Shown: positions 1-28,386, numbered from the stretch's first letter. The stretch is 64,000 nucleotides of DNA from Aequorivita sp. (GCA_048270045.1 JBLWTS010000003.1:10069-74068), one strand, 5' to 3'. Numbers and translations: made by a program. Notes: a model not told the origin generated them from the sequence alone.

Positions 1-2077
1 TTTCCCAGGAGGTGGCATTCTTATCATCTTCGTCTGCATCCTTATACATAAAGACCAATTGCGGTAATCCTAAGTGTTCATTATCTTCTTCCTCTTTTGG
101 AGCTTTTTCTTTCTTCTTTTCCTTATCTGCAATTTTCACCCAAAACAATTGTTCAAAATTTTTTCCCGGAGCGGTCAGCGTTGCCTTCATTTGTACCGCA
201 TCTCCTACCTCCAAATCTTCCTTCGGGTTTAGGCTTATTTTTATAGTTCCCTTGTTGGGGCTGCTTTTTACAATATTAAATACATCAGTTGGCTCTTTAG
301 GTTCTCCTGGTTTATCACCGCCGCCTTTCTCATTATTTTTTATGTTGAGTATGGATATTTGCAATTCACCGGGGTCATCCAATCGGTCAAAATAATCATT
401 CTCAACATCCGTAGAAAATTTAATAGTCTTTTCGCCACCCAAAGGTATTTTGGCTACTTCATTTTCACCATTATTTCTTGCATCTATTTTAAAATGAGAA
501 GGGTATCTTTCAGGCTGAAAGGGAATTTCCTCTTTCTGTTTTTTAGCTGGTTTTTTATCTCCTTGCTTCTTCTCATTTTTCTTAATGTCCAATTTAAAGG
601 TTTGACTTAACAACTTCATTAAATCGGAATCTAAAGGAAGGTCTTTAGTAAAGCTCTTTAAAAGTTCTCCTGTATTGGCTGAGGTATCAATATTAACAGC
701 TTGTTTTCTATGTTTCTCTATTTCAGCGAGTCTCCCATCGCTTTTACTCAATTGATTAGCCAAATATTTCCTAAGGTATTGAGTTTCTTCCCCCTCTTTC
801 AATCTATCACGTGAAGCCATAAAAAGCTCTTTTCTAAAGTCATAATTCATTTCCGTACAATCAACGTGAATTAGTAAATGGCTTTTTAATAAGTTGAATT
901 TTAAGGAACGTGAAATAAATTCTGAAGTATAATGTCCATGTACTTGACCGTTCAAGGTAAATAGGACAGACATAGAGTTTTTAAAATATCTTCTTTGGAT
1001 ATTTTCCTTTGTTTTTTTTAAGTCATTATCTTTAACTTTGGTTTTAAAAACAAAACAGGAAACTTTCATTTCTCCTATTGTCTCATCGTTATAAGTTTCG
1101 GAAAATCGATCAGCTAAATAATCCGACTCTTCACTACTTAATCTTCTTTTTAATCCATATAAATCTTGGGTAAGTACTTTATTGTTTGGATATCGTTCTT
1201 CAGTATCCTTTGTTAATATAGGCAAAGCGGGATTAAAAAGAAATTCATTAATGCTTTGATTAAGATCTTGTGCAAATCCTGAATAACCTTTGGGGAATTG
1301 ATAAGAATACATTTTAATAATTGTTCCGGTCGTGAATTTTCTCCCTTCCAGGCCAATATCTAATTGATCAATAGGAAAAGAAGCTATTTTCCCCTCGATT
1401 AATAAATATTCATACCAAGTCTCTTTAGCGTGGTCAGATTCTCTTTTAGGATGCTCCCGGATAAGGGTAAAACCGAAATCTCCATCACTCGAATATCTCT
1501 TGGAAGCTATTAGTTGGTATCTTTTTTTACCACAGAATACAATTGCACCACTACCGCCCATATTATATTTTCCCTGCACAAACTGAACGTCATTTTTATT
1601 GCCTCTTAAAAGAGATAAAAAAGTACTTTCAAAATCTTCGGGATGTTGTCCCTCTCCATTATCATAAACGATAACCGAAGTTGGCTGTTGGCTCCTTGGA
1701 GTTCTAGGCCCTTTGCCATCTGCAATGATCTGAATTTCCTCAGCCTGACTTTTTCTAAATTGTTGTAAATCCCAATTATGATCCGGAAAAAAAGTATCAA
1801 TGGCTTCTTCCATTGATTGCGGAGCATTCTCACCTTTTGGGTCTATACCTGCTTGATAGCATTTTTTTGTCAACAATGCATCAATGGAATTAGTAACCTT
1901 TTCTATAAGTGCCGCAATGGGATTAGATTGTTGATTTTTAACTACTCCATAATTACTTTTGTTATTTCCTAACGGTTTCCAATTATGATCCGCGAAAATG
2001 GACGGATATTTATCAAGTATAGCACCTAAGTCCTCTTCATCCTTTGCATTGAAGAGATCAAAAAAAAGTTTTTGCAT
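1..2077 (-). CDS. GHKL (HATPase_c-type) ATP-binding protein, partial; C-terminus runs off the window
   Basis: Not in the ORF track because there is no stop inside the window. I translated the minus strand codon by codon from ATG at 2077 down to about position 360 with no stop, and read the last ~360 nt to position 1 less rigorously, also seeing no stop: MQKLFFDLFNAKDEEDLGAILDKYPSIFADHNWKPLGNN... Bergerat-fold motifs are present: IEKVTNSIDA (N box), VYDNGEGQ (DxGxG, G1), GKYNMGGSGA (G2). The + strand ORFs 12..395 and 359..610 and the - strand ORF 1606..1833 are out-of-frame or antisense shadows. Confidence 0.8.
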   Translation of the reverse strand, partial: MQKLFFDLFNAKDEEDLGAILDKYPSIFADHNWKPLGNNKSNYGVVKNQQSNPIAALIEKVTNSIDALLTKKCYQAGIDPKGENAPQSMEEAIDTFFPDHNWDLQQFRKSQAEEIQIIADGKGPRTPRSQQPTSVIVYDNGEGQHPEDFESTFLSLLRGNKNDVQFVQGKYNMGGSGAIVFCGKKRYQLIASKRYSSDGDFGFTLIREHPKRESDHAKETWYEYLLIEGKIASFPIDQLDIGLEGRKFTTGTIIKMYSYQFPKGYSGFAQDLNQSINEFLFNPALPILTKDTEERYPNNKVLTQDLYGLKRRLSSEESDYLADRFSETYNDETIGEMKVSCFVFKTKVKDNDLKKTKENIQRRYFKNSMSVLFTLNGQVHGHYTSEFISRSLKFNLLKSHLLIHVDCTEMNYDFRKELFMASRDRLKEGEETQYLRKYLANQLSKSDGRLAEIEKHRKQAVNIDTSANTGELLKSFTKDLPLDSDLMKLLSQTFKLDIKKNEKKQGDKKPAKKQKEEIPFQPERYPSHFKIDARNNGENEVAKIPLGGEKTIKFSTDVENDYFDRLDDPGELQISILNIKNNEKGGGDKPGEPKEPTDVFNIVKSSPNKGTIKISLNPKEDLEVGDAVQMKATLTAPGKNFEQLFWVKIADKEKKKEKAPKEEEDNEHLGLPQLVFMYKDADEDDKNATSWE

Positions 2078-2640
2078 TGAATAATTTTTTGAGATTACTA
2101 ATATTATTTTTAAACCTTAATTAGAATACCATTCTAATATTTAAATTTCCATAAGACATAATAGAATAACAATATAAGTCACAGCATACAAAATATATTA
2201 AATTGAATTTACTCTTTGAGTAAAAACTCAATAAATACGGAGAGCTACTTTGTATATTAACTTCGACTGTTTAAGTGGGGAGATTTTAATGACATTTATA
2301 AGTGGGTTTGTAATGTATTAAATGCATTGTAAGCTAAACTAAAATAATTTTAAAGAATTAGCAAATTTATTTTAGGTGTATAATCTATTCGTGCTAATTC
2401 ACCTTTTTTATAATTATTTGTCATAGTGAAGTAGTTTCTCTAAAACTAGTATGCAGGCCTGTTTTATAGAATTTAAACTACAATCAATATCATAATCCCA
2501 GAAGATAATGTGGGGTTCTAATTTGTTATTATAAATCTTAGTGGTTTTAATGTCCCAGCCTATGCCACTAAACGATGAAGTTTAATTATTATCACTATTG
2601 CTGATTACTTGAAACACTATGCTATTACGTAATAAAATTG

Positions 2641-3060
2641 TTATTTATTTTTATCCAGAATATCTTCCAGCTCCTTTTCAGTAAGTTGAAGTTGATTAGT
2701 TAAAAGTTCAATAGCCTTTTTAATCTGGCTGCCAGATTCACTCATTATTTTATCCGCCTGCCCAAGCACCCTTAATTCATCCTCCAAATAAGCTAATTTT
2801 TTTCGTAGAATGTATGGACTTTTAGCCTCATTAACTTGAAGCTCTTTTTCCTCATCACTCATCATTGGCTCCTTTCCACACAAAAGCCAAGAAGGATTGA
2901 GTTCAGGGCATTTATTATATAGTAACTCCGCATCAAAAGAGTTCCTGCTCTTCCAGTTTGAATATACCTGTGGTGTAATTCCTAAAAACTTGGCAAAGTC
3001 TACGTCAGTTTTAAAGCTGTAGTAGTCCTTAATCTTATCTAACATTATGGCCTTATCCAT
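2641..3060 (-). CDS. HTH transcriptional regulator, phage CI-repressor/XRE-like N-terminal domain with helical C-terminus
   Basis: 139-aa ORF. The N-terminus DVDFAKFLGITPQVYSNWKSRNSFDAELLYNKCPELNPSWLLCG looks like a CI-type HTH. The gene is divergent from the sigma/Cas12f-like operon. Confidence 0.7.
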   Translation of the reverse strand: MDKAIMLDKIKDYYSFKTDVDFAKFLGITPQVYSNWKSRNSFDAELLYNKCPELNPSWLLCGKEPMMSDEEKELQVNEAKSPYILRKKLAYLEDELRVLGQADKIMSESGSQIKKAIELLTNQLQLTEKELEDILDKNK

Positions 3061-3085
3061 AACAATAAAATATTTGTGTATAAAA

Positions 3086-3117
3086 TTTGCACAATAAACA
3101 AAACGTTTATATATTTG
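3086..3117 (+). promoter_or_regulatory. Candidate Bacteroidota-type promoter for the 3183..5660 module
   Basis: TTTG at 3086-3089 and TATATTTG (matches TAnnTTTG) at 3110-3117, about 65 nt upstream of the ATG at 3183. Confidence 0.35.
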
Positions 3118-3134
3118 ATTTTCAGTATGTAAAA

Positions 3135-3155
3135 CTGTTCAATAAATGTGAACAG
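3135..3155. promoter_or_regulatory. Perfect inverted repeat CTGTTCA-N7-TGAACAG; candidate operator
   Basis: Read directly from the sequence. It sits between the candidate -7 box and the first ORF, in the divergent intergenic region shared with the CI-like repressor gene. Confidence 0.4.
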
Positions 3156-3182
3156 ATTATTTAATCTGTAAATATAGCTAAA

Positions 3183-3371
3183 ATGAAGCAAACTTATAAT
3201 GCAACCCTTGTCAAGGCGCTTGCCAAGAAGTATGAGATATCGCCGCGATATGTTAGGTACTGTCTCAAAGGAGAGCGATCCCCCTGTTTTGCAGAGAAAA
3301 TTAAAAAGGATTATACAAGATTTATAAGTAAGATAGAAAATATAATAGAAAAGGAATGTAAATCAAAATAG
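3183..3371 (+). CDS. Small (62 aa) basic protein, possible HTH
   Basis: ORF track. ALAKKYEISPRYVRYCLKG is HTH-like. The stop lies 6 nt before the sigma factor ATG, so the two are probably co-transcribed. Confidence 0.5.
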   Translation: MKQTYNATLVKALAKKYEISPRYVRYCLKGERSPCFAEKIKKDYTRFISKIENIIEKECKSK

Positions 3372-3377
3372 TGTCCC

Positions 3378-4160
3378 ATGAAACCAAGCACTTTCATACA
3401 ACTAAAAAAAGGCTGCCCAAACGCCCTTACCGCTATTTATGATGAGTACCAGAGGCGTATTTTTGGGTTGGGCAGGTACTTGCTACGCGACCACTTTGTG
3501 GTGGAATGCCTGATGCAGGACACCTTTTTAAAACTCTGGGTGCACCGCGACCGCATCGAGCGGCCTGAACACATCCTTTTCTTCCTCCTTTTCGTAATGA
3601 AAAGAGAGTGCATCTCCTATTACACCCGACCCAGAAACGACTTCAATAGAAAAATCTGCTCCCTCGATAGTTTTGATAATTATCAAAACTATATGGCGGG
3701 CTACGATCCTCTGACCGAGGCCGAAACCCTAAGGTTACAAGCCAAGGAACAACAACACTTTGAGCTCATACAAAGTGTACTGCCCCTATTAGATACCGAA
3801 GGAAAACACCTAATCGAGCTTTGCCTAAAATACGGCTTCCATTACAAGGCCATTGCTCAAGCCATGGGTAGCAGTGTTACAGACACCAGCAACAAAGTGA
3901 AAAAAGCCATTGCAGCCCTTAAGATCATTGTGGACCAAGGCGGAACGCTTAACAGCAAACAAAAGCCTGCCACCATCAAACTACAAGGTGCAATGACCCC
4001 CGAACAGGCGGAAATACTAAAACTGCGCTGTGAAAATAAATACTCCTTCGCCGACATAGCCCAAACCCTCAACCGCCCCCAAAAGGAAATCCATCGAGAA
4101 TTTATAACAGCATACAAACTCATACAACAAAAACATCACCTACAAACACAATCCGCTTAA
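3378..4160 (+). CDS. ECF-type sigma-70 family factor with an extra C-terminal sigma4-like HTH module (260 aa)
   Basis: Region-2-like DTFLKLWVHRDRIERPEHILFFLLFVMKRECISYY. Region-4-like LIELCLKYGFHYKAIAQAMGSSVTDTSNKVKKAIAALK. A second region-4-like segment follows: MTPEQAEILKLRCENKYSFADIAQTLNRPQKEIHREFITAYKLI. It is about 100 aa longer than the ordinary ECF sigma at 51876..52355. Confidence 0.85.
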   Translation: MKPSTFIQLKKGCPNALTAIYDEYQRRIFGLGRYLLRDHFVVECLMQDTFLKLWVHRDRIERPEHILFFLLFVMKRECISYYTRPRNDFNRKICSLDSFDNYQNYMAGYDPLTEAETLRLQAKEQQHFELIQSVLPLLDTEGKHLIELCLKYGFHYKAIAQAMGSSVTDTSNKVKKAIAALKIIVDQGGTLNSKQKPATIKLQGAMTPEQAEILKLRCENKYSFADIAQTLNRPQKEIHREFITAYKLIQQKHHLQTQSA

Positions 4161-4213
4161 TGTGAAAACTTTAGGACCTAAATTCGTAATTCCAAATCCG
4201 AAATACCACCAGC

Positions 4214-4340
4214 TGTGGAATTTGAAAATTGAAAATTAATAATGTAAACCCGAGGGTGCTTGTAGACACTTAAGGTGAGGCCAACCGCACTCACTAAATG
4301 CCTGGGCATATACAACGCGTGAGTACTTACTTTTTTTTAA
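4214..4340 (+). ncRNA. Candidate guide RNA copy A: conserved ~105-nt scaffold (4214-4316) plus a divergent 3' tail
   Basis: Direct repeat of 5675-5781, about 80% identical by eye. It has three hairpins (4259-4274, 4275-4294, 4298-4309). Their stems are conserved between the two copies and their loops differ. It ends in ATACAAC, followed by sequence that diverges from copy B. See findings. Confidence 0.55.
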
Positions 4341-4559
4341 ACGCTCTTTAAATTGTTTTTGTAAGCCCAAACTTTTAGCCCTCCAACCAGCGAAGCAAGA
4401 GGAAGACAATGCAAAAAGGAAAGAATAATGAACAACTGAGTTGAATAGACTCATACTATTTAAATTTTTCTAACCAACACCCAACGACTGTCACACTGAG
4501 CGCAGTCAAAGTGCATAACCAACAAACAGACATCAGACAACAGAAAACACACAACTGAA

Positions 4560-5660
4560 ATGAAAACCTCCACCCTAAAACTCACCCGAAAACTCCAGCT
4601 CATCATAGACCTGCCAGAAGGGGAGGAGCGCAACGAAGCTTTTGAAAAACTCTATCGCTGGCAGAACCGTGCTTATCGTGCGGCAAACCTGATTGTCTCC
4701 CATCACTATATTCAGGAAATGATACAGGAATTTCTATACCTCTCCGATAAAGTGCAATACAAACTAACCGACGAGATAAAGGACCCTCTGGGCATACTTA
4801 ATCGCTCCCGAAATAACACAACTTATCGTTTGGTATCAGACCGTTTCAAAGGCGAAATCCCAACCAATATCCTCTCCAACCTCAACCGTGCTCTTCTCCT
4901 ATCATTCAACAAGGAGAAGCATGGATACTGGAAAGGGGAGCGGTCGGTAAAAAACTTTAAGAGGAATATGGCCTTCCCTTTTGCCCCTGATGAATGCATC
5001 CACTGCCTGCACTACAACGAGGAAAAGAAAGCCTTTTGCTTTCGATTGTTCAAAATTCCCTTTCGAATCTATCTGGGCAGGGATTCCACCGACAAGCGAA
5101 AGCTGTTGGAAAGGGCAATAGCAGGAGAGACCAGCATCCGCACCTCCCATATTAAATTAAAAGATGGAAAAATATTTTGGCTAGCAGTCTTTCAAATAGA
5201 AAAGGAAAACCACACCCTAAGGCCAGAAGTAATTGCCGAGGCCTCCCTTTCATTGGAATTTCCTATTGTGGTAAAGGCCAATAAAACGAGGCTCACCATT
5301 GGTAGCAAAGAGGAATTCCTGCACCGAAGGCTCGCAATACAGGCAGCGCGGAAAAGAGCGCAAAGCGGTGCCACCTTTTCCCGCTCCAGCAAAGGCACCA
5401 AAAGAAAGCTAAAAGCAGTGGATAGCTTCCATGAAAAAGAGCGCAATTATGTCCACACCCGCCTCCACGTGTACAGCAGAAAGCTAATCGACTTCTGCGT
5501 AAACCAACAGGCAGGAACGCTAGTCCTTTTGAACCAAGAAGACAAAATAGGCATCGCCAAAGAAGAAGAATTCGTATTGCGAAACTGGAGCTATTATGAG
5601 TTAATGGAAAAAATAAAATACAAAGCCCAAAAAGCAGGAATAGAACTTATAGTAGATTGA
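4560..5660 (+). CDS. Cas12f/TnpB-like protein, C-terminally truncated and apparently nuclease-dead (366 aa)
   Basis: The N-terminus KLTRKLQLIIDLPEGEERNEAFEKLYRWQNRAYRAANLIV has the WED/REC-like layout of TnpB/Cas12f. The central FRLFKIPFRIYLGRDSTDKRKLLERAIAGETSIRTSHIKLKDGKIFWLAVFQIEKE resembles the Cas12f WED/RuvC junction. The C-terminus YSRKLIDFCVNQQAGTLVLLNQED...LRNWSYYELMEKIKYKAQKAGIELIVD matches the RuvC-II region and the following helix. The protein stops exactly where the TSQ/CxxC zinc ribbon and RuvC-III would begin. Confidence 0.75.
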   Translation: MKTSTLKLTRKLQLIIDLPEGEERNEAFEKLYRWQNRAYRAANLIVSHHYIQEMIQEFLYLSDKVQYKLTDEIKDPLGILNRSRNNTTYRLVSDRFKGEIPTNILSNLNRALLLSFNKEKHGYWKGERSVKNFKRNMAFPFAPDECIHCLHYNEEKKAFCFRLFKIPFRIYLGRDSTDKRKLLERAIAGETSIRTSHIKLKDGKIFWLAVFQIEKENHTLRPEVIAEASLSLEFPIVVKANKTRLTIGSKEEFLHRRLAIQAARKRAQSGATFSRSSKGTKRKLKAVDSFHEKERNYVHTRLHVYSRKLIDFCVNQQAGTLVLLNQEDKIGIAKEEEFVLRNWSYYELMEKIKYKAQKAGIELIVD

Positions 5661-5674
5661 TTTTTTGGTTTAAT

Positions 5675-5805
5675 TGTGGAATTGTTTATTGCTAATTCTT
5701 TATTGAAAATTGTAAAGAGGGTTCTTGTAAACCCACAAGGTGAGGCCTAGGCACTCACTAAATGCAAAATGCATATACAACGCGTGGGCTCTCTTACCTT
5801 ATAAA
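5675..5805 (+). ncRNA. Candidate guide RNA copy B: scaffold (5675-5781) plus a divergent 3' tail
   Basis: Second copy of the 4214-4316 element, starting 15 nt after the Cas12f-like stop codon. Hairpins at 5724-5739, 5740-5758 and 5762-5774. It ends in ATACAAC, followed by GCGTGGGCTCTCTTACC... Confidence 0.55.
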
Positions 5806-5864
5806 ACATTCCGTTCGCACAGGTCGCGGCATGTCCCCAATTCCCTTGAGTCCTGCCTCCAAAA

Positions 5865-5969
5865 GTCGTGATTCCAACCGTCGTGATTCCAACCGTCGTG
5901 ATTCCAACCGTCCTGATTCAAACCGTCCTCCCTCAAACCGTCCTGATTCCAACCGTCGGGCCCCAAACC
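5865..5969. repeat. Tandem 15-mer repeat (about 7 copies, consensus CGTCGTGATTCCAAC)
   Basis: Read directly. Same family as 13400..13676 and the degenerate copies at 63840..63990. It produces the spurious ORFs 5762..6040 (+) and 5794..5982 (-). Confidence 0.9.
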
Positions 5970-5978
5970 CTTCTTTCC

Positions 5979-6761
5979 TCAAAACACTCCCACAATCCGC
6001 ATCCCGCCACTTTTGGGAATTGCTAACATCTCAGTATTGACCTCCTTATAAAAAGTTATTCCCACCGCTACTACCAATCCAGCCTCCTGTGGCAACTGAG
6101 AAATGGGTAGCGTTATCTCCATTGTCTCCATCTCGATACCAGCTACGGTAAGGGGCAGAATTTCACCCTGCATAAACCCTCCCAAACCGATGACTTCCTT
6201 GCAAAGTGGAAGATATTTTTTATGTTTGTCATTATAGGCATAATTGCTCAAGGCAGCTACATTTATTTGCAGTGCAAAATGCGTAGCTTTCTCCGGACCG
6301 GTAATTTGGGTTTGCGGTTTTATATTGCCAACTTCCCATAGCACTCCGTTTCCGTTTTTATGGAATCGCGGCATTGCCTTTAAGCCTCCTAAACTATTTA
6401 CTAGGGGTTGGAACTTTCTAAATTCAGTTTCAATCAAGTGAGATCCATTGGTGCGCAGGTCCAATTTTCGCCCTCCTTCTGTTCCTTCTCCAAAATAAGC
6501 AATACGCCTAAGTGCCCCACTAAACCTAGCCGACACGCTGCCATCTGCCAAGGAAAGGGAATGAAGTGAAAAACTTTTCCGCAAATCGCGGGCAGCCGTA
6601 CTCCCAACTCCAAATTCAATACTCGAGAGCTTGGTGCGCTCGCTTTGTTTAATGGGGCCTTCAATTTTTTTCCTGACTCTTTGCTGTCCATTTTCATCCA
6701 TATAAAATGTCAGCTCCCCAATGTTTCCGCTTATTCCCGTTAATCCATTTACTCGTGCCAT
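5979..6761 (-). CDS. Hypothetical protein (260 aa), no recognisable domain
   Basis: Long ORF convergent with the Cas12f-like gene. I see no signal peptide and no motif I recognise. Confidence 0.6.
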   Translation of the reverse strand: MARVNGLTGISGNIGELTFYMDENGQQRVRKKIEGPIKQSERTKLSSIEFGVGSTAARDLRKSFSLHSLSLADGSVSARFSGALRRIAYFGEGTEGGRKLDLRTNGSHLIETEFRKFQPLVNSLGGLKAMPRFHKNGNGVLWEVGNIKPQTQITGPEKATHFALQINVAALSNYAYNDKHKKYLPLCKEVIGLGGFMQGEILPLTVAGIEMETMEITLPISQLPQEAGLVVAVGITFYKEVNTEMLAIPKSGGMRIVGVF

Positions 6762-6951
6762 AACTATCTAATTTATAAAGTCTTGCCGCCTTGGTCAAGA
6801 CCTTTGTTAAACTTTTATAAACTGCTTAAATAAAATATTCTAAACCATCCTTTATGGGAGTTAAAGGCCAAGTTAAGGCCACCATGCTCCATAGATGCGG
6901 CTACCTAAGTCCGGGGTAAGTCCGGGTATAATGCGGGTAAATTTTTATAAA

Positions 6952-7206
6952 TTACTTGCTACTTTGATCTTCACATTTCCCATCCGTCCAAGAAAGTAGT
7001 CCCGCCCGACCAGCGGCGCAGGGGTTCGAGTAGGTCTTTCCATCGCAACCACATACTGGTGCATATTCTAAAGTACACGGCCCATCACTTATTTTGGATG
7101 CATCGATACACGCAGTGGTGTTGGTGCTGCCACAAGAGTTGACTAATAGCAACCCGCAAATAAGAAAAATGGGAGTCCAAAAAGATAGTTTGTGCACTAC
7201 TTTCAT
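6952..7206 (-). CDS. Kazal-type serine protease inhibitor domain lipoprotein
   Basis: Start moved to the ATG at 7206 (MKVVHKLSFWTPIFLICGLLLVNSC, signal peptide plus lipobox Cys). Kazal signature CTLEYAPVCGCDGKTYSNPCAAGRAG. Confidence 0.75.
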   Translation of the reverse strand: MKVVHKLSFWTPIFLICGLLLVNSCGSTNTTACIDASKISDGPCTLEYAPVCGCDGKTYSNPCAAGRAGLLSWTDGKCEDQSSK

Positions 7207-7370
7207 TTCTTGAAATTGTACTACTAATATAAGCCCGTTTGCCTCGAATTCCAAAAATAGGGTGCAAATATATTTAAAACACTAATAATCAAATTTTTAT
7301 GTATTTATTTCTTGAATTTACTAAAGTTTTATTGTAATTCATTTTCCTTCTTTTTAAACGTTAAAAGGCT

Positions 7371-7378
7371 TAAATTTG
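7371..7378 (+). promoter_or_regulatory. TAAATTTG -7 box (TAnnTTTG) upstream of ppa
   Basis: Matches the Bacteroidota -7 consensus, 38 nt upstream of the ATG at 7416. Confidence 0.45.
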
Positions 7379-7415
7379 CACCCTCAAAAATTGGAACAAA
7401 GTAAATATCATAAAT

Positions 7416-7928
7416 ATGAGTAAGACATTCGATGTGCTAATAGAAATTCCTAAAGGCAGCCGTAACAAATATGAATACGATTTTAAACTAAAGAAAATTC
7501 GTTTCGACCGTATGCTTTTCAGCAGTATGATGTACCCGGCCGATTACGGTTTTATTCCCGAAACCTATGCCCAAGATGGCGATCCTTTGGATGTATTGGT
7601 GCTAGGCCACGAACCTACCTTCCCAATGTGCGTGATGGAAGTAAAGGCTATCGGCGTATTCCATATGGCCGATGAAAAAGGACCGGATGAAAAGATAATC
7701 TGCGTCCCTATGTCCGATCCTATCTGGAACCAGCTAAATGACCTGGAAGATCTCAACCCACACCTTATTAAGGAAATAGAACATTTCTTTAAAGTCTATA
7801 AAGACCTTGAAAAAAAACGTGTAGACGTAGGAGGCTGGGGCAACGCCGAAGAAGCCTTGGAAATCTACCGCCAATGCGTAAAACGCTACAACGAAACCCC
7901 CGAAGTACACGGACAGTTCAGTATTTAG
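7416..7928 (+). CDS. ppa: Soluble inorganic pyrophosphatase (family I)
   Basis: 170 aa. IEIPKGSRNKYEYD...YPADYGFIP...DGDPLDVLV are classic family I PPase motifs. Confidence 0.95.
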   Translation: MSKTFDVLIEIPKGSRNKYEYDFKLKKIRFDRMLFSSMMYPADYGFIPETYAQDGDPLDVLVLGHEPTFPMCVMEVKAIGVFHMADEKGPDEKIICVPMSDPIWNQLNDLEDLNPHLIKEIEHFFKVYKDLEKKRVDVGGWGNAEEALEIYRQCVKRYNETPEVHGQFSI

Positions 7929-7946
7929 AAATTAGACATAAGACTA

Positions 7947-7998
7947 AAAGACATAAGACGTAAGACTCATTTCAGTTTAAGTCTTATGTCTTTTGAAT
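7947..7998 (+). terminator. Long hairpin followed by a T-run after ppa
   Basis: AAAAGACATAAGAC (7947-7960) pairs perfectly with GTCTTATGTCTTTT (7981-7994). The stem is built from inverted copies of the AGACATAAGAC repeat. Confidence 0.6.
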
Positions 7999-8151
7999 TT
8001 ATAAAACACATCTCCAATCTCTTACAATTCAGTCTAGTCTCTAGCAGTCCCGATTTATCGGGGCGGTCCAGTCTCTCGTTTCTCGTCTCTCGTCTCCTCC
8101 ACCATTTAACATATCCTTCACTTTCCTGTTTCGTATCCCAAACCATTTCCC

Positions 8152-8159
8152 TACTTTTG
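8152..8159 (+). promoter_or_regulatory. TACTTTTG -7 box upstream of hppA
   Basis: TAnnTTTG match 41 nt upstream of the ATG at 8200. Confidence 0.45.
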
Positions 8160-8199
8160 CAGTCGCAAATTTGAAAACCAACCTTAATCTAAAATATTT

Positions 8200-10719
8200 A
8201 TGGAATCAATGATGATCTACGCGCCAATAGCAATGGCGCTATTAGGCTTAATCTTTATGGCCGTTAAACGTTCGTGGGTAATGAAACAAAACCCTGGTGA
8301 CGGTAAAATGAAAGAAATAAGCGACCACATTTATGAAGGGGCTTTGGCCTTTCTTAATGCTGAATACAGAGTGCTAGCTATTTTTGTGGTTATTGTAAGT
8401 ATAGCCTTGGCAGTGGTATCTTATATAGTTCCTACCACCCACATATTAATTGTTGTAGCGTTTATATTCGGTGCCGTTTTCTCTGCCTTGGCAGGAAATA
8501 TGGGGATGAAAATCGCAACAAAAACTAACGTTCGTACCACCCAAGCCGCTCGTACCAGCCTACCAAATGCACTAAAAGTTTCTTTTGGCGGGGGAACAGT
8601 AATGGGACTTGGTGTGGCAGGTCTTGCAGTACTTGGTTTAACTGCATTCTTTATATTCTTCTTCCATTATTTTATGGGAGGTATTTGGACCAATACAATG
8701 GATATGACCATCGTTCTTGAAACATTGGCAGGTTTCTCGCTGGGAGCCGAATCTATTGCATTGTTCGCTAGAGTAGGAGGTGGGATCTATACAAAAGCAG
8801 CCGATGTGGGTGCCGACCTTGTTGGAAAAGTAGAAGCAGGTATTCCTGAAGATGATCCACGAAACCCAGCTACTATTGCCGATAACGTTGGAGATAACGT
8901 TGGGGACGTAGCAGGTATGGGTGCCGACTTATTTGGTAGTTATGTTGCAACCGTTCTGGCAGCAATGGTTTTAGGAAATTACGTAATTAAAGATATGGGC
9001 GGAGTAATTAACGACGCATTCGGAGGTATTGGCCCAATCCTGTTGCCAATGGCAATTGCAGGTGTGGGTATCATTATTTCTATTATCGGAACCATGCTCG
9101 TAAAAATCAATAGCAACGATGCAAAAGAATCGCAAGTAATGGGGGCTTTAAATATTGGTAACTGGGTATCTATCGTTTTAGTTGCCATTTCTTGCTTTGC
9201 GCTTGTAAAATGGATGCTTCCCGAAACAATGAATATGAGCTTCTTCGGCGAAGGCCTTCAGGAAATATCTTCGATGAGAGTATTCTATGCTACCCTAGTA
9301 GGTTTGGTTGTAGGTGCGGGAATTTCATCGGTAACAGAATATTACACTGGATTGGGTAAAAAACCAATTCTTAAAATAGTTCAGCAATCGTCAACAGGGG
9401 CTGGAACAAACATTATTGCCGGTTTGGCAACAGGGATGATTTCTACTTTCCCTTCTATCTTACTTTTCGCAGGTGCTATCTGGGCATCATACGCCTTTGC
9501 AGGATTCTACGGAGTTGCCCTCGCTGCTTCTGCTATGATGGCAACTACAGCTATGCAACTTGCAATCGATGCTTTCGGACCTATTAGCGATAACGCAGGG
9601 GGTATTGCCGAAATGAGCGAGCAGGAACCAATAGTACGTGAGCGTACCGATATTCTGGATGCCGTAGGAAATACTACCGCTGCTACAGGTAAAGGATTTG
9701 CTATCGCCTCTGCTGCATTGACTTCCTTAGCTCTTTTTGCAGCTTACGTAACCTTTACAGGTATCGACGGAATCAACATCTTTAAAGCTCCTGTATTGGC
9801 GATGCTTTTTGTAGGTGGAATGGTGCCGGTAGTATTTTCAGCATTGGCAATGAACGCCGTTGGAAAAGCTGCTATGGAAATGGTAAATGAGGTGAGAAGA
9901 CAGTTCCGCGAAATTCCAGGAATTATGGAAGGAACCGGAAAACCAGAATACGACAAGTGTGTGGCTATTTCAACCCAAGCGTCTTTAAGAGAAATGGTGT
10001 TGCCAGGAGTTCTTACAATCGGTTTCCCAATAGTAATTGCTTTCGCTCCCATGCTTTTTGGAATGGATAATATGTCTATCGCCGAAATGCTTGGTGGTTA
10101 TATGGCCGGAGTTACCGTAAGTGGTGTACTTTGGGCTATTTTCCAAAACAATGCTGGTGGGGCCTGGGATAACGCAAAGAAATCCTTTGAAGCCGGAGTT
10201 CTTATCGATGGCGAAATGACATACAAAGGAAGCGAAGCCCACAAAGCCGCAGTTACGGGAGATACTGTAGGAGATCCATTTAAGGATACTTCAGGGCCTT
10301 CGATGAACATCTTGATTAAACTTACCTGTTTGATCGGACTCGTAATCGCGCCTATTCTTGGAAATCACGATGGGGTTGTGTTGGCAAATGAAACTACTTT
10401 AAATGAAACCACTACGAATGAAGTTTATATGATCGATGCAGAAGGTAATAAGGTGCCATTGACCGAAAAGCAAATTCAGTTTATCGAAACAGGTAGAGCC
10501 GTTACTCCCATTCAAAATGGAGAAGACCGCACCCAAACTTTGGTTGAAATGATTAAAAATGACAATAACGATCAAGTTAAAGCCAACGTAACCATTATAC
10601 GAACCATTAACGGGGAACAATCTACCGAAACCCTAACCTTCGCTGGTACCGAAGAAGAGGTTCGCAGCCAAATGAAGGATGTAAAGGGAATGAAAATCAA
10701 GATAAAGGATAAAGAGTAA
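8200..10719 (+). CDS. hppA: Membrane-bound ion-translocating pyrophosphatase with a ~100-aa soluble C-terminal extension
   Basis: 839 aa and multi-TM. Motifs [53 protein letters not shown]. The tail after ...LGNHDG is hydrophilic ([20 protein letters not shown]...KIKDKE). Confidence 0.95.
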
Positions 10720-10766
10720 TTCTTAATCTATGTCGCCAAATAAACAAAGGCGTTCAATAAAATTCC

Positions 10767-10806
10767 AAAACCTGCAAAATCCCACCGATTTTGCAGGTTT
10801 TTTTAT
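10767..10806 (+). terminator. Rho-independent terminator after hppA
   Basis: AAAACCTGCAAAATC / GATTTTGCAGGTTTT stem followed by a T-run. Confidence 0.8.
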
Positions 10807-10825
10807 TGGTTAAAAAAGTCGATAG

Positions 10826-10912
10826 ACTTCGACTTCAATTTCAATTTCAACCTCAACTTCAAATTCAATTTCAACTTCAATTTCAATTTCAACTTCAATT
10901 TCAACCCCAAAT
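10826..10912. repeat. Tandem repeat tract of TTCAAT/TTCAAC units (CAATTTCAACTTCAA type)
   Basis: Read directly. Same family as 27027..27087 and 36771..36818. Confidence 0.9.
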
Positions 10913-10963
10913 TAACATTTCCAAAATAATCCTACATTAAAATTTACATATCTTAGCCTGACT

Positions 10964-12226
10964 ATGGATTACAACGACCTCGTAACACTGGGAATTTCAT
11001 TTGGACTGGGCCTTCTGGTAGGGTTACAGCGTGAAAAAACCAATCATGAAACAGCGGGAGTTCGTACCTTTACCCTTATTGCAATCCTAGGAACAATCGC
11101 CGGATTCTTAACCCGCGAATACGACAATCCCTTTATACTTCCCATTTTCGGAATTGCCGTAACAGCCTTAATGATTACCGCCAATATTATAATTGCGAGA
11201 AGAGATGAAGATACTTCCGCCGGACAAACCACTGAAGTTGCCGTATTATTGATGTTTGCACTGGGTGCCTATTTGGTTTTGGGCGATCACGTAATTGGAG
11301 TAATCATAGGCGGAGCTCTTGCTATTCTACTATATATAAAAGAATCACTTCATAATTTTATCGATAAGCTTAAGGATAAAGACCTCGGTGCAATTATGAC
11401 TTTTGTTGGCATTTCATTGGTCATTCTCCCAATTCTCCCAGATGAAACCTATGGTCCATTAAACGTACTTAACCCACGCGATATATGGTTAATGGTTACG
11501 CTTATAGTCGGTATTAGCGTTCTGGGCTATTTTGTATATAAATGGGTAGGGAAGAAGGCCGGAATGATATCCAACGGCATCTTGGGAGGAATTATCAGCA
11601 GTACTGCCACCACGGTGAGTTATGCCCGGAATGCTTCGAAAAACGCCAGCATAAGTAAGGTTTCGGCATTTGTTATTATGGCTTCGGTCACGGTTTCAAT
11701 TATTCGCGTAATTATTGAGATTGGAATAGTCGTACCCGAAAAGCTTCCTGCCTTAATAACCCCCTTTGCCATTCTATTTTTATTTATGGCTGTTCTATCT
11801 GTAATTCTTTTCTATACGGTGTCGAAAGATAAATCGGTTGAAGACATGCCAGAACCAAAGAATCCTGCGCAGTTTAAGAGTGCGTTTGTTTTTGGATTGT
11901 TGTACGGACTTATTCTCTTGGCTGTAGCATTTACAGAAAGGGAATTTGGAAACGAAGGACTTTACATCGTTTCTATCATTGGAGGATTGGCAAAAAAAGA
12001 TGCCATTACTTTATCATTGGCACATTCCATAAGTGGAGGATTGGCAACCGAATTGGGCTGGCGACTCATAATGACAGGAGTGCTAGCTAATTTTGCATTT
12101 AAAATCGTTTTGGTAGCTGTGTTGGGGAATAAAAAACTTGTAACTTGGGTAGGTGGCGCAATGTTTCTTTCAATCGTCGCTGGCTTATTACTGATGTGGC
12201 TTTGGCCTGAAGGATGGCATTTTTAA
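10964..12226 (+). CDS. MgtC/SapB-family plus DUF4010 integral membrane protein
   Basis: 420 aa, polytopic. The N-terminus LGLLVGLQREKTNHETAGVRTFTLIAILG is typical of the MgtC family. Confidence 0.7.
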   Translation: MDYNDLVTLGISFGLGLLVGLQREKTNHETAGVRTFTLIAILGTIAGFLTREYDNPFILPIFGIAVTALMITANIIIARRDEDTSAGQTTEVAVLLMFALGAYLVLGDHVIGVIIGGALAILLYIKESLHNFIDKLKDKDLGAIMTFVGISLVILPILPDETYGPLNVLNPRDIWLMVTLIVGISVLGYFVYKWVGKKAGMISNGILGGIISSTATTVSYARNASKNASISKVSAFVIMASVTVSIIRVIIEIGIVVPEKLPALITPFAILFLFMAVLSVILFYTVSKDKSVEDMPEPKNPAQFKSAFVFGLLYGLILLAVAFTEREFGNEGLYIVSIIGGLAKKDAITLSLAHSISGGLATELGWRLIMTGVLANFAFKIVLVAVLGNKKLVTWVGGAMFLSIVAGLLLMWLWPEGWHF

Positions 12227-12275
12227 TTTGAATAGCCTCCTTTTTATCAACCCCATTTTCAAAAACATAGTCAAT

Positions 12276-13298
12276 ATGAATTTCTTTAAAAAAGACCCTC
12301 TACATATAGTTCCATTTAGAAGCTATGGCACTTCAAGCCATCTCTATGCTAAAGGAAGAGCTTTGGAAGATGAAAGCATCGATTTAACCAAAAAGGGGTT
12401 TTTTAATATGCTGTGGATTGCATACAAACGCTTTGGGACCGACCTTGTCAAAAATACCCAAGTGCTGCTTAAGCTTTCGGATGGCAGGAAATTAAAAACC
12501 AAAACCAGCGACCAAGGATATTACCTCATTGATGAAACCGTAGAGGATATGACCCCTTTAGTTGATAAAGAAGGTATTCTGAAGTATCAAATTTCTTTTT
12601 TGGAACCTATGTCAGGACGAAAAATCCAACGGGAGAATATGTTTAAAGGAGAGATAATTATTCCTTCGCAAACTGCCAAATTCGGAGTAATAAGCGATAT
12701 TGATGACACTATTATCCATACAGGATTAACCTCGCGACTTAAATGGCAAGTAGTAAAAAACACCATTTTTAAACGCGCCGAAAATAGAATTCCTTTAGAA
12801 GGAGCTCCAGAGTTCTATACAAAACTTCAGCACGGAAAATCAGGTAACGATTGCAATCCCATTTTTTACGTTAGCCACAGTCCTTGGAACTTGTATGAAT
12901 ATCTCGAACTGTTTTTAAGGGCAAACAACTTTCCAAAAGGCCCCATATTGTTACGTGATTTTGTGAGTCCGCTTAAAACCATGTTTCAGCCAAAAGAAAA
13001 AGGGGAGAAGCCCGAAAAACAAAAGGAAATTTTAAATATTCTGAAGACATATCCAGAATTGCCTTTTATCCTGATTGGAGATAGTGGCGAACGCGATCCC
13101 GACATCTATATAGAAATAGCCGAAGCCCATCCCGAACGCATTCTCGCTATCTATATGCGAAGCGTAAACCATAGAAAAAAGATGATTCGCGTAGAAGGAC
13201 TTTTTAAAGAATATGAAACCGTCCCCGTCCTGCTTGTAGAAAACAGCAAAGCAGCCGTAGAACACGCCCGCCAAATGGGATTCATTTCAGAAACATAA
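12276..13298 (+). CDS. App1-family (DUF2183) phosphatidate phosphatase-like protein
   Basis: GVISDIDDTIIHTG (DxDxT) motif. I prefer the ATG at 12276 to the TTG at 12228 used by the ORF track. Confidence 0.7.
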   Translation: MNFFKKDPLHIVPFRSYGTSSHLYAKGRALEDESIDLTKKGFFNMLWIAYKRFGTDLVKNTQVLLKLSDGRKLKTKTSDQGYYLIDETVEDMTPLVDKEGILKYQISFLEPMSGRKIQRENMFKGEIIIPSQTAKFGVISDIDDTIIHTGLTSRLKWQVVKNTIFKRAENRIPLEGAPEFYTKLQHGKSGNDCNPIFYVSHSPWNLYEYLELFLRANNFPKGPILLRDFVSPLKTMFQPKEKGEKPEKQKEILNILKTYPELPFILIGDSGERDPDIYIEIAEAHPERILAIYMRSVNHRKKMIRVEGLFKEYETVPVLLVENSKAAVEHARQMGFISET

Positions 13299-13399
13299 AA
13301 GATATAAGAATCAAGACCGCTCCGCTACAAGGATCTAGGCAATACTAGAAAAACTCTTGGCTCAAAACCTTCCCAATGAAAAATCGGAACAGACTCTAA

Positions 13400-13676
13400 T
13401 TCCACTCCTCGTAATTCAAAAAGTCCTGATTCAAAAAGTCCTGATTCAAAAAGTCGTGACTCCAACTGTCCTGATTCAAAAAGTCGTGACACCAACCGTC
13501 CTGATTCAAAACGTCGTAATTCAAAAAGTCCTGATTCCAACTGTCGTGATTCAAAACGTCGTGATTCCACCCGTCGTGATTCCAAATGTCGTGATTCAAA
13601 ACGTCGTGATTCAAAACGTCGTGATTCAAAAAGTCCTGATTCCAAAAGTCCTGATTCAAAACGTCCTGATTCCCCC
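13400..13676. repeat. Tandem 15-mer array (about 18 copies, GTCCTGATTCAAAAA / GTCGTGATTCAAAAC variants)
   Basis: Read directly. It produces three overlapping spurious ORFs (13325..13780 -, 13357..13716 +, 13396..13692 -). Confidence 0.95.
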
Positions 13677-13688
13677 TCCGTCCAAACC

Positions 13689-15746
13689 TCACCCCATCCT
13701 CTCAAAATACCTGTAAATCTCCACCTGCGATTGAAGTTCCTCCTCTGAATTGCGATCGTATTCATTCTTTTGATCGGCATCTATAATTCTGGCTTTTACA
13801 TTATCGGCAAGTTCCAAGTTAATCACATCTCTCACAACTTTCTTATGCTCTGGGTCCAAAATAGGAGCTACAACTTCAATTCGATGGGTGAGGTTTCGCG
13901 TCATCCAATCTGCCGACCCGATAAATATTTTCTCGTCACCCCCATTTCCAAAGATGTATATGCGACCGTGTTCCAGAAACCGGTCCACTACACTGGTAAT
14001 CGTTATATTTTCACTCTGACCTTTTATGCCCGGAATTAAACAGCAAATACCTCGAATCAATAATCGGATTTTCACCCCAGCATTACTGGCTTTATACAAT
14101 TCCTTTATCATATCCTTATCCTCCAAACTGTTCATCTTAAGGATAATCAGACCCTCTTTCCCTGCGTGAGCCAATTCTATTTCTTTTTCTACCAACTCCG
14201 TAAAACGAAGGCGAGCGGAAAAAGGAGCCACAATTAGTTGCTTGGTCTTTGGCACCAATACCGTGCGTTCCAATACCATAAAGACCTTTTTAACGTCCGC
14301 AGCTATCTTTTTGTGCGCGGTCATCAATCCAAAATCGGTGTATAATTTCGCGGTGTTTTCGTTGAAATTGCCAGTTCCTATATATGCGTAACCTTTCGCC
14401 TCGCCTTCTATTTCCCTTTCTATGTAAAGTATTTTTGAATGTACCTTAATATCAGGATAACTGTAAATTACCTTCGCTCCATTTTCACGGAATTTCTCAC
14501 CCCATTTTAAGTTGTTTTCTTCATCAAAACGAGCTTTTACTTCCATAAAAACAGTAACATCCTTACCCTTTTTTGCAGCAAGTGCTATGGCATCATTAAG
14601 AGGCGACTCTTCCGCTGAGCGATAGATTGTCAACTTAATCTGAGTGGTAAAAGAATCGTTTGCAGCCTCTTCCATCAACTTGATAACCGGATCAAAATTC
14701 TGATACGGAAAGTGCATCAGCTGATCTTTCTTTTCAATCTCTTCAAAAACAGATTCACATTCCCCAAGAATAGGATGAGGTAACGGAGGTAACTTTTTGT
14801 TGGATAAATCCTTATCCGCCGGATTCGGAAAATCCATAAAATCCCTAAAGTTGTGGTACCGCCCGCCCAAGATTACGTCTATGTGAGAAAGATCCAACGC
14901 CTTCTTTAATCCTTCCTGCAAGTCCGTAGCCATTTCAGGATCGATTAAAATCCGGGTGGCTTGACCTGTATCCCTTTTCGGAAGGGCAGCTTTAATCTTT
15001 TCCATTAAATTTCCTGAGAATTCATCCTCGATGTACAATTCCGCATCACGCGAAATCTTGATGGAGTAGAACTTGATTTGATTTGTTTCTGAAAACTCTT
15101 TTTCGAGATTGAATTTTAAAATATCATCAATAAAAGTGATATAATGCTTTGGTTCCTTTTTGCTGGAAACTCTTTCTGTAGTATTGGGAAATACAAAAAA
15201 TCTCGGTTTGGATTGCGGAATCTCCACCAATGCAAATTCCTCCTTGGAAAGAGCGGCAGTTAAATAAAGGGTTTCGTTTTTTACAAATACCTTATTATTT
15301 TTTGAGTAACTATTTTGCTCTATTTGTAATATGGGCTTTAAAGTATCCCGATAATACCGAGTTGCAACTTCCTTTTGTGCCTCAGAAAAATCTTCGTGAC
15401 GGAGCAGGTGAATCCCTTCAGAAGCTAACTGCGGAATGATTTCCTTTTTAAATACTTGGCCAAACTCCTCTTGTTGACGGTCTAATTGTATTTTGATTTC
15501 CTTTAAAACCCTGTTTGGTTTAGTAACAAGCTTTTTTCTAAGCGGTTTGTCCAGTTGCTTGATCTGCCGTATATCCGAAACCCGAACACGAAAAAACTCA
15601 TCGAGATTGGAAGAGAAAATAGCCAAAAATTTAATCCGTTCATACAACGGATTCCGCTTATCTGCTGCTTCCTGCAACACACGATGATTAAATCGCAACC
15701 AAGAAAGATCGCGATGATAAAATTTATTATTATATAGTGAAGCCAT
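13689..15746 (-). CDS. ppk1: Polyphosphate kinase 1
   Basis: 685 aa. The N-terminus YHRDLSWLRFNHRVLQEAADKRNPLYERIKFLAIFSSNLDEFFRVRV and two PLD-like HxK regions (KVHSKI...). Confidence 0.95.
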   Translation of the reverse strand: MASLYNNKFYHRDLSWLRFNHRVLQEAADKRNPLYERIKFLAIFSSNLDEFFRVRVSDIRQIKQLDKPLRKKLVTKPNRVLKEIKIQLDRQQEEFGQVFKKEIIPQLASEGIHLLRHEDFSEAQKEVATRYYRDTLKPILQIEQNSYSKNNKVFVKNETLYLTAALSKEEFALVEIPQSKPRFFVFPNTTERVSSKKEPKHYITFIDDILKFNLEKEFSETNQIKFYSIKISRDAELYIEDEFSGNLMEKIKAALPKRDTGQATRILIDPEMATDLQEGLKKALDLSHIDVILGGRYHNFRDFMDFPNPADKDLSNKKLPPLPHPILGECESVFEEIEKKDQLMHFPYQNFDPVIKLMEEAANDSFTTQIKLTIYRSAEESPLNDAIALAAKKGKDVTVFMEVKARFDEENNLKWGEKFRENGAKVIYSYPDIKVHSKILYIEREIEGEAKGYAYIGTGNFNENTAKLYTDFGLMTAHKKIAADVKKVFMVLERTVLVPKTKQLIVAPFSARLRFTELVEKEIELAHAGKEGLIILKMNSLEDKDMIKELYKASNAGVKIRLLIRGICCLIPGIKGQSENITITSVVDRFLEHGRIYIFGNGGDEKIFIGSADWMTRNLTHRIEVVAPILDPEHKKVVRDVINLELADNVKARIIDADQKNEYDRNSEEELQSQVEIYRYFERMG

Positions 15747-26966: not shown

Positions 26967-27026
26967 ATCCAATCACGGATTTGGTTTCGATTTCTCTCAA
27001 TTATTATTGGACAGGAATTCGATGTC

Positions 27027-27087
27027 AAGTTCAATTTCAATTTCAACTTCAATTTCAATTTCAATTTCAACTTCAACTTCAATTTCA
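27027..27087. repeat. TTCAAT/TTCAAC tandem repeat tract
   Basis: Read directly. It creates the false SSSISISTSISISIS N-terminal extension of paaC and the KLKLKL ORF on the - strand. Confidence 0.9.
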
Positions 27088-28261: not shown

Positions 28262-28270
28262 CTTATTTTA

Positions 28271-28386
28271 ACATTGAACATTGAACATTGAATATTGAAC
28301 ATTGAATATTGAACATTGAATATTGAACATTGAATATTGAACATTGAACATTGAAAATTGAACATTGAACATTGAAAATTGAACAT
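28271..28386. repeat. Tandem heptamer repeat (ACATTGA / ATATTGA)
   Basis: Read directly. It runs into the annotated TTG start of paaD and generates the ORF 28263..28526 on the - strand. Confidence 0.95.

Follow-up and report, generated by a model that had tools for sequence, protein, structure and literature searches.

The window analysed here, i.e., the whole 64-kb stretch of DNA (64,000 nucleotides), contains a locus in which a divergent regulator gene, a short conserved ORF, the gene of an ECF sigma factor, and the gene of a truncated Cas12f homologue are accompanied by two guide-RNA units. The regulator gene, hth (2641..3060, minus strand), encodes a helix-turn-helix protein of 139 aa that matches the Pfam Phage_CI_repr HTH model at aa 6-65 (E=1.4e-5) and has orthologues 85-97% identical at the same position in the related loci L001, L004, and L008; the association with hth is a published feature of dCas12f–sigma-E loci (PMC13472631). 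The intergenic region that follows (3061..3182) shows ~90% nucleotide identity to L004 and L008 and includes two palindromes, at 3135-3155 and 3152-3169, the first of which has its symmetry preserved by a double change with respect to these loci, and both could represent a candidate operator or RNA hairpin. Directly 5' of the sigma factor gene, orf62 (3183..3371, plus strand) is a conserved ORF of 62 aa with 92-94% aa identity in L001, L004, and L008, whose substitutions are mostly synonymous, including AGG to CGT, and which has no Pfam or NCBIfam match. The sigma factor gene, rpoE (3378..4160, plus strand), and dcas12f (4560..5660, plus strand) are co-oriented and separated by ~400 bp, with rpoE upstream. 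The locus lacks an anti-sigma (FecR) gene and has no tRNA nearby, and an apparent ~2-kb gene-free stretch 5' of hth was rejected as such, being occupied by a long minus-strand ORF that runs past the window edge.

The product of dcas12f, which begins at an ATG and comprises 366 aa, is a nuclease-dead, C-terminally truncated Cas12f homologue. A phmmer search of the PDB aligns its residues 3-365 with residues 3-364 of 'Nuclease-deactivated Cas12f' (9n9c_A; E=2.1e-167, 68% identity) and also retrieves three further nuclease-deactivated Cas12f entries, whereas active Cas12f nucleases are matched more weakly (E=5e-43 to 9e-7). A Foldseek search with the AF2 model likewise places 9n9m and 9n9c at the top, followed by active Cas12f structures, the latter with a probability of 1.0. 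With a probability of about 0.9, the ORF is read here as dcas12f from a dCas12f–sigma-E system for RNA-guided transcription that belongs to an Aequorivita-like flavobacterium and is orthologous to the characterised one of Flagellimonas taeanensis (Fta). In this system, described by Hoffmann et al. (Nature 2026, PMC13472631) and Xiao et al. (2025, PMC12259091), RNA polymerase is guided by an RNA to a DNA site, and genes are thereby activated without a promoter (PMC13472631); both papers cite Altae-Tran et al. for an earlier bioinformatic report of the truncation, the inactivating mutations, and the link to a sigma factor. The striking dead and truncated Cas12f, which the initial annotation had treated as novel, is fully explained in function and structure by this family published in 2025-2026, and the finding is a correct rediscovery; the present locus is itself uncharacterised. 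The locus would nevertheless be a clean case from nature of activation that is RNA-guided and independent of a promoter, in a genus (Aequorivita-like) absent from the experimentally characterised systems.

The closest named relative is Aequorivita viscosa (94% in L001), and public records label the protein 'transposase' or 'hypothetical'. Pfam, NCBIfam, and Rfam alone fail to identify the system, and it was the PDB sequence search that made the identification. An identity as TnpB of an IS200/IS605 element is contradicted by the sub-threshold TnpB score, the loss of the catalytic residues, and the closest solved relatives, which are Cas12f proteins, and no tnpA is found among the neighbouring genes. 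As for the type V-F nucleases, the protein has neither an intact RuvC D-E-D triad nor a zinc-ribbon/TNB domain, positions 1-12000 contain no interspaced repeat family that could form an adjacent CRISPR array besides the two guide-RNA units, and the neighbours (hth, orf62, rpoE, and a 260-aa ORF without assignment) include no tracrRNA or adaptation genes of this type.

The initial annotation had noticed two copies of an RNA element at the locus, and both are recovered as dCas12f guide-RNA scaffold units by a covariance model. Exactly two scaffolds were detected in the window by nhmmer and, subsequently, by this model (R1), which was derived from 17 scaffold copies. Unit B (5717..5800, plus strand), located 57 bp past the dcas12f stop codon, is composed of a scaffold at 5717-5786 and a putative 14-nt guide, GGCTCTCTTACCTT, at 5787-5800; it scores 88.9 bits (E=1.1e-23) and its minimum free energy is -28.5 kcal/mol (z=-3.7). 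Unit A (4252..4335, plus strand), located between rpoE and dcas12f, is composed of a scaffold at 4252-4321 and a putative 14-nt guide, AGTACTTACTTTTT, at 4322-4335; it scores 81.2 bits (E=1.8e-21) over the full length of the model and aligns with the 16 other copies, with a single mismatch in the first stem. At 27362-27380, 17 nt matching the scaffold 3' end were attributed to chance (7.3 bits, E=4). The scaffold forms three conserved hairpins (GGGU/ACCC, GGUGAG/CUCACU, and AUGC/GCAU), in which covariation is minimal because the scaffold is so conserved, and Rfam has no match for the guide RNA.

The start of the guide was taken as the base following ...ACAACGCGTG, where conservation ends, and the next 14 nt as the putative guide. 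Unit B is 88-95% identical to elements lying directly 3' of dcas12f in loci of Aequorivita, Flagellimonas, and Maribacter, and in 11 related assembly loci (Aequorivita, Galbibacter, Leeuwenhoekiella, Flagellimonas, and Maribacter) the scaffold occupies this same position. The homology of the scaffold to these elements flanking dcas12f in relatives suggests that units A and B are guide RNAs of dCas12f. Moreover, the guide of unit B shares a conserved GGCTCTCTTA... and its first ten bases are the same as in the Flagellimonas and Maribacter guides, a conservation across genera that fits the published description of a conserved guide directed to a site, also conserved, upstream of susCD (PMC13472631, PMC12259091). 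The guide of unit A is similar to those of GGTACTCTC type carried by the upstream units in L004. Like the present locus, L004 and L008 have units between rpoE and dcas12f (two and three, respectively), and the rpoE-dcas12f spacer is otherwise hypervariable and full of simple repeats.

A target of a dCas12f–sigma-E system is taken to be a guide match with a TAM upstream of susCD, of a two-component system, or of the system's own operon. Sites for guides A and B were searched in the window with the guide start shifted by +/-1, a seed of 5-6 nt, and at least 9-10 matches out of 14. For guide B, no site with up to three mismatches exists in the 64 kb besides the guide-RNA genes themselves, while guide A gives 17 matches against 15.8 expected, a chance-level number, the best ones being intragenic or lacking the G motif. 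Two sites were considered and discarded: that at 17309 (G + AGTACTCGATCTTT, 10/14) is placed inside the coding region of a secreted protein, 494 bp from the next plus-strand gene, and that at 48919 (12/14) is intragenic and without G motif. Within the window, no guide-matching site combines a 5'-G motif with a promoter-like position, and a susCD operon is lacking. Comparison of all guides with all related loci yielded only noise, and a metagenome scan for a non-scaffold base followed by TAM and guide (VGGGCTCTCTTAYCTT) gave 120 matches that were essentially random or terminator hairpins; matches in L123 and L119 were dropped as intragenic, and that in L023 because the sequence is not bacterial-looking. 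By analogy with the published systems, the target would most likely be situated upstream of a susCD-type transporter operon outside the window. The TAM of the present orthologue is uncertain, because three TAM-region residues differ from those of Fta (M85 to N, H110 to R, and Q144 to E145) and are variable in the family; judging from these residues, it may not be 5'-G.

The partner of dCas12f is the ECF sigma factor encoded by rpoE, located 400 bp upstream, to which the initial annotation, in this finding, had drawn no link, although it is the source of dCas12f's function. The 260-aa protein aligns at 4-260 with residues 4-261 of PDB 9n9q_C RpoE (phmmer E=1.4e-85, 52% identity) and carries a C-terminal extension at about aa 186-260: the NCBIfam ECF model covers aa 16-182 only, the canonical sigma-2/sigma-4 part ending at ~aa 182, and a second region-4-like HTH (Pfam sigma70_r4) is matched at aa 205-241, inside the extension. 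Eight residues of the Fta protein that contact dCas12f or bridge DNA according to mutagenesis or structure (PMC12259091), namely L137, H144, Y152, I184, R218, F225, H240, and F243, are all identical here (8/8). In addition, rpoE is linked to dcas12f in each of the nine related loci with DNA spanning the whole upstream gene, and in L002 and L003 the linkage is seen as partial genes at the contig edge.

By analogy with the published homologue, the protein would bind RNA, target DNA, recruit the sigma factor, and activate transcription in the following manner. An asymmetric dimer of the truncated, nuclease-dead Cas12f would bind one single guide RNA of ~85 nt encoded beside its gene, and the 14-nt guide at the 3' end of this RNA would pair with a chromosomal site adjacent to a minimal TAM (5'-G in Fta) with formation of an R-loop. 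Through its lid motif and the surface bared by the truncation, the dead RuvC domain would then bind sigma-4 and the extra C-terminal domain of the ECF sigma factor, which would bring core RNA polymerase, so that transcription could start ~46 bp downstream of the TAM without -35/-10 elements; in the Fta system, the start lies 45-48 bp downstream of the 5'-G TAM and such elements are likewise dispensed with (PMC13472631, PMC12259091).

An RNA-guided repressor that blocks a promoter, either in the manner of TldR or as in CRISPR-linked clades of dead Cas12f, with the sigma factor being an unrelated neighbour, is very improbable. Nuclease-dead relatives of TnpB and Cas12 that repress transcription do exist, a CRISPR-linked dCas12f cluster has been suggested to repress efflux genes (PMC13472631), and the 64-kb window holds no target to show the direction of regulation. 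However, the sigma factor possesses the family-specific C-terminal domain with all of the published dCas12f-contact residues and remains next to dcas12f in all informative loci, the homologue with 68% identity activates transcription (PMC13472631), and the locus has no CRISPR array. That the protein would act purely as a repressor is unlikely, because it has a dedicated sigma factor with a conserved interface.

The RNA-guided activation proposed for dCas12f and RpoE also agrees with the manner in which the nuclease domain has been lost. The product of dcas12f ends with ...GIELIVD (terminal stretch ...LRNWSYYELMEKIKYKAQKAGIELIVD, that is, ...NWSYYELMEKIKYKAQKAGIELIVD, each followed by the stop), thus stopping at the last RuvC beta-strand preceding the zinc ribbon (strand ELIV, aa 362-365). 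The absence of zinc ribbon and RuvC-III claimed in the initial annotation is confirmed by several profiles and alignments: the Pfam Cas12f1-like TNB (zinc-ribbon) model matches with only the first 20 of its 60 positions (aa 345-364, E=0.18), the NCBIfam guided_TnpB model scores 56.9 bits, where the cutoff is 100, and is matched only to profile position 338 of 389, and the alignments with active Cas12f proteins end at residue ~414 of 506 in Al3Cas12f (9nzo), 426 of 497 in CnCas12f (8hr5), and 361 of 422 in AsCas12f (7wju), leaving 60-90 C-terminal residues of these nucleases without counterpart. It had also been stated that no CxxC-coding remnant is present 3' of the gene and that the DNA there holds only the RNA element and tandem repeats, and both statements agree with the present data: no CxxC motif occurs in the three forward frames of 5561-6100, where unit B and a tandem repeat (5850-5958) are located.

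With regard to the catalytic positions, the translation does contain AEASLSL at aa 226-232 and TLVLLNQED at aa 320-328, the two stretches that the initial annotation took for mutated RuvC-I and RuvC-II motifs. In the alignment to Al3Cas12f (9nzo), IVGVDLGI pairs with IAEASLSL and, therefore, the RuvC-I Asp is replaced by Ser229; the substitution is a family feature, since position 229 is Ser in 30 of 32 homologues. The claim thus holds for RuvC-I, whereas for RuvC-II it depends on the alignment. In that with Al3Cas12f, AGAIQMERL pairs with AGTLVLLNQ, so that Leu324 occupies the Glu position, which is Leu, Val, Ile, or Met in all 32 homologues, but when AsCas12f and CnCas12f are aligned by HMMER, a gap of 3 residues is introduced and E327 falls opposite the catalytic Glu, making RuvC-II ambiguous by sequence alone. 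The AF2 model has pLDDT values of 76-91 for aa ~215-330 and 350-366, and only this RuvC half was used because confidence is low at aa 1-14 and poor at aa 32-144. In it, strand 221-229 finishes with Ser229 and strand 318-324 with Leu324, the lid helix that comes next starts at E327, and strand 362-365 is directly followed by the end of the protein. The lid boundary published for the Fta protein (325-346, with numbering one less than here; PMC12259091) agrees with E327 as the start of this helix. The placement of Leu324 at the Glu position would consequently be a structural reading and not an unambiguous one. The earlier proposal of a disabled triad combined with a retained RNA/DNA-binding core gains support from the 68% identity to a solved nuclease-dead homologue.

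It is very improbable that the protein still cuts DNA, with E227/E233 and E327/D328 rebuilding the active site and the C-terminal domain of the sigma factor supplying the third motif in trans. Besides the HMMER placement of E327, this explanation, whose trans-supplied third motif had been raised in the initial annotation, could draw on the conservation of E227, E233, and E327 in the alignment of 32 homologues and on the description of the sigma C-terminal domain as one that physically 'complements' the truncated RuvC domain (PMC12259091). Nevertheless, the RuvC-I Asp is replaced by Ser in nearly all of these sequences, E327 belongs to the lid helix in the model and is itself Gln in 3 of the 32, the published interface consists of a hydrophobic core (F225/F243) and hydrogen bonds (R218/H240) without a metal site (PMC12259091), and the target DNA is intact in the cryo-EM complexes (PMC12259091) and transcribed in vivo (PMC13472631).

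The dead form of the protein is maintained in the family. A total of 1052 homologues were found at E<=1e-5, the best 120 of which are almost all of 360-366 aa, and the 32 that were aligned are all of 364-366 aa, so the truncation is common to all of them. The substituted motif AEASLSLE is itself nearly invariant in this alignment, and the lid tyrosines Y345/Y346 and the TAM-duplex contacts Y89/R90, whose roles have been described for the Fta protein (PMC12259091), are invariant or nearly so. Moreover, dN/dS is 0.04-0.09 with respect to three relatives, which supports that dcas12f is under purifying selection and would be a working gene. The feature is far beyond chance in view of the number of homologues, the near-constant length of the best 120, and the dN/dS values. 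A functionless, decaying TnpB/Cas12f remnant, i.e., a pseudogene of an IS200/IS605 element or of a degraded CRISPR locus, as the truncated C-terminus, the sub-threshold scores to TnpB/Cas12f family models, and the labels in public records might suggest, is excluded by these conservation data, with the stop at the same position in all 32 aligned sequences and no CxxC remnant downstream.

The dCas12f–sigma-E assignment can be further appraised by comparison with known systems. The Fta system (PDB 9n9c, 9n9m, 9n9o, and 9n9q) shares with the present locus the gene pair and its order, a nearby hth gene, and the lack of a CRISPR array, and its proteins share a dCas12f of almost the same length (365 aa, versus 366 aa here) with an identical truncation point and the substituted RuvC motifs AEASLSLE and GTL(V/I)L(L/M)NQED, as well as the C-terminal domain and all of the named interface residues of RpoE. 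The scaffold family can be likened to that of Fta through the Flagellimonas loci of the same genus, where the scaffold is directly 3' of dcas12f and the guide has GGCTCTCTTA at its 5' end. However, identity is only 68% for dCas12f and 52% for the sigma factor, and N85, R110, and E145 replace the Fta residues in the TAM region. Furthermore, the rpoE-dcas12f gap is of 7 bp in Flagellimonas loci, in contrast to the 400-bp spacer with a second unit of divergent guide found here, and the Fta locus has an hth-associated ncRNA where the present one has the 62-aa ORF between hth and rpoE.

Type V-F Cas12f nucleases (Al3Cas12f 9nzo, CnCas12f 8hr5, AsCas12f 7wju/8j12, and Un1Cas12f 7l48) share the WED/REC/RuvC core, the lid motif W-S-Y-Y, and the YKA...GI strand, but dCas12f lacks the ~60-90 C-terminal residues, carries substitutions at both the Asp of motif I and the Glu of motif II, is encoded without CRISPR array and tracrRNA, and would use a single short guide RNA and recruit a sigma factor instead of cutting. 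TldR proteins (Wiegand et al., PMC10705468) are also nuclease-dead, domesticated proteins of the TnpB lineage with a fixed chromosomal guide that regulate host genes by binding DNA in an RNA-guided manner. However, they derive directly from TnpB and repress by occlusion, acting alone at loci of the fliC/oppF type, whereas the present protein is closest to Cas12f, has a dedicated and obligate sigma-factor partner, and would activate, as judged by homology. Finally, Cas12k of type V-K CRISPR-associated transposons, which appears among the structural matches, is naturally nuclease-dead as well and uses its R-loop to recruit other machinery, but it is much larger, is associated with a CRISPR array, and recruits TniQ/TnsC, not RNA polymerase.

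The points of interest that remain are unit A inside the operon, the TAM-base G before each guide, and the conserved orf62. The last scaffold base is G in the 19 guide-RNA scaffold copies examined (19/19), which is the same as the published 5'-G TAM and, therefore, each guide-RNA gene is formally a perfect target of its own RNA. It is conceivable, albeit rather doubtful, that unit A is more than a spare guide and takes part in a self-priming loop or, alternatively, serves a second regulon through guide A (the AGTACTTAC.../GGTACTCTC... family). In the former case, a complex of dCas12f and guide RNA A on the unit's own gene would direct a start ~46 bp downstream (~4367) and read-through of dcas12f and guide RNA B, establishing a promoter-less positive-feedback loop that would become a cascade in relatives with two or three tandem units; in the latter, guide A would lead dCas12f and RpoE to a further regulon that has gone unrecognised. 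Self-targeting is not mentioned in the papers on the system, and guide-overlapping hits were filtered out in the published target search (PMC13472631). Unit A, the hypervariable rpoE–dcas12f spacer, and orf62 could refine the picture of the wiring of such systems with regard to multiplexing, autoregulation, and self-targeting.

In the convergent intergenic region, TRF and a repeat search identified the tandem repeat at 5850..5958 as ~6-7 copies of the 15-bp unit GTCGTGATTCCAACC. It is not conserved in L001, which has other simple repeats at this place, and is probably not part of the system.

The guide-RNA genes of this locus carry at their scaffold boundary the base of the published target-adjacent motif. 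The final scaffold base ahead of the guide is G in all 19 scaffold copies compared, namely those of unit A (4252-4335, scaffold end at 4321) and unit B (5717-5800, scaffold end at 5786) and every copy in the related dcas12f loci L001-L010, and the published target-adjacent motif of dCas12f is an identical 5'-G. Thus, every guide-RNA gene formally constitutes a perfect target for its own RNA. In the minimum-free-energy fold of 5712-5805 (z = -3.7), the guide of unit B (CUCUUACCUU) is paired with AAGGUGAG of the scaffold, in competition with the second hairpin. In the guide RNA of Flagellimonas taeanensis, guide sequestration (P5) has been described, and this predicted pairing may be related to it.

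The spacer between rpoE and dcas12f (4161-4559) is hypervariable between close relatives when compared with its equivalents in L001-L008. It measures 400 bp and holds one guide unit in the window. Two units are found in a spacer of 677 bp and three units in one of 764 bp, and other spacers measure 4 bp, 120 bp, and 440 bp, the last made of simple repeats. This hypervariability suggests that guide units are gained and lost through duplication and loss by repeat-mediated recombination.

Between hth and rpoE lies orf62 (3183-3371, + strand), a 62-aa ORF, which is 92-94% identical to its counterparts in the Aequorivita viscosa, Galbibacter, and Leeuwenhoekiella loci. Since the changes among these relatives are mostly synonymous, AGG to CGT among them, orf62 is a genuine small gene, and it has no match in Pfam or NCBIfam. 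In the Flagellimonas model locus, an hth-associated ncRNA occupies this place. The hth-orf62 intergenic region (3061-3182), with a nucleotide-level conservation of about 90%, contains the palindrome CTGTTCA-N7-TGAACAG (3135-3155), which in L004 and L008 has a double change that retains the symmetry (TGTTCC...GGAACA), and a second one, ACAGATTA-TT-TAATCTGT (3152-3169). An operator bound by the HTH protein or, alternatively, a hairpin in RNA is conceivable here.

On the downstream side, a convergent 260-aa ORF (5979-6761, - strand) has no match in Pfam or NCBIfam. At the corresponding position beside L001, the A. viscosa locus, lies a homologue with 38% identity, and L003 carries a weaker homologue. 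On the other side, a long ORF (1-2077, - strand) that extends past the left edge of the window shows, by eye, GHKL-ATPase-like motifs (E..N..DA and DNGEG) and shares no homology with the regions flanking related dcas12f loci; thus, the context of the hth-to-gRNA cassette differs from genome to genome. Further downstream, a phosphate and pyrophosphate metabolism cluster (7416-15746) is unremarkable gene content, comprising a putative soluble inorganic pyrophosphatase (7416-7928) and a putative membrane H+-pyrophosphatase (8200-10719), both assigned by eye only, and, from Pfam, an APP1-like phosphatase (12228-13298) and a polyphosphate kinase (13689-15746, - strand).

Two 15-bp tandem arrays, GTCGTGATTCCAACC repeated 6-7 times (5850-5958) and TCGTGATTCAAAAAG repeated 17.6 times (13409-13672), have a common TCGTGATTC core and are both sited between convergent genes. 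The simple repeats flanking guide RNAs in relatives are unrelated to those of the window, where intergenic 6-7-bp arrays are also numerous (e.g., 10826-10905, 27025-27089, and 28270-28387).
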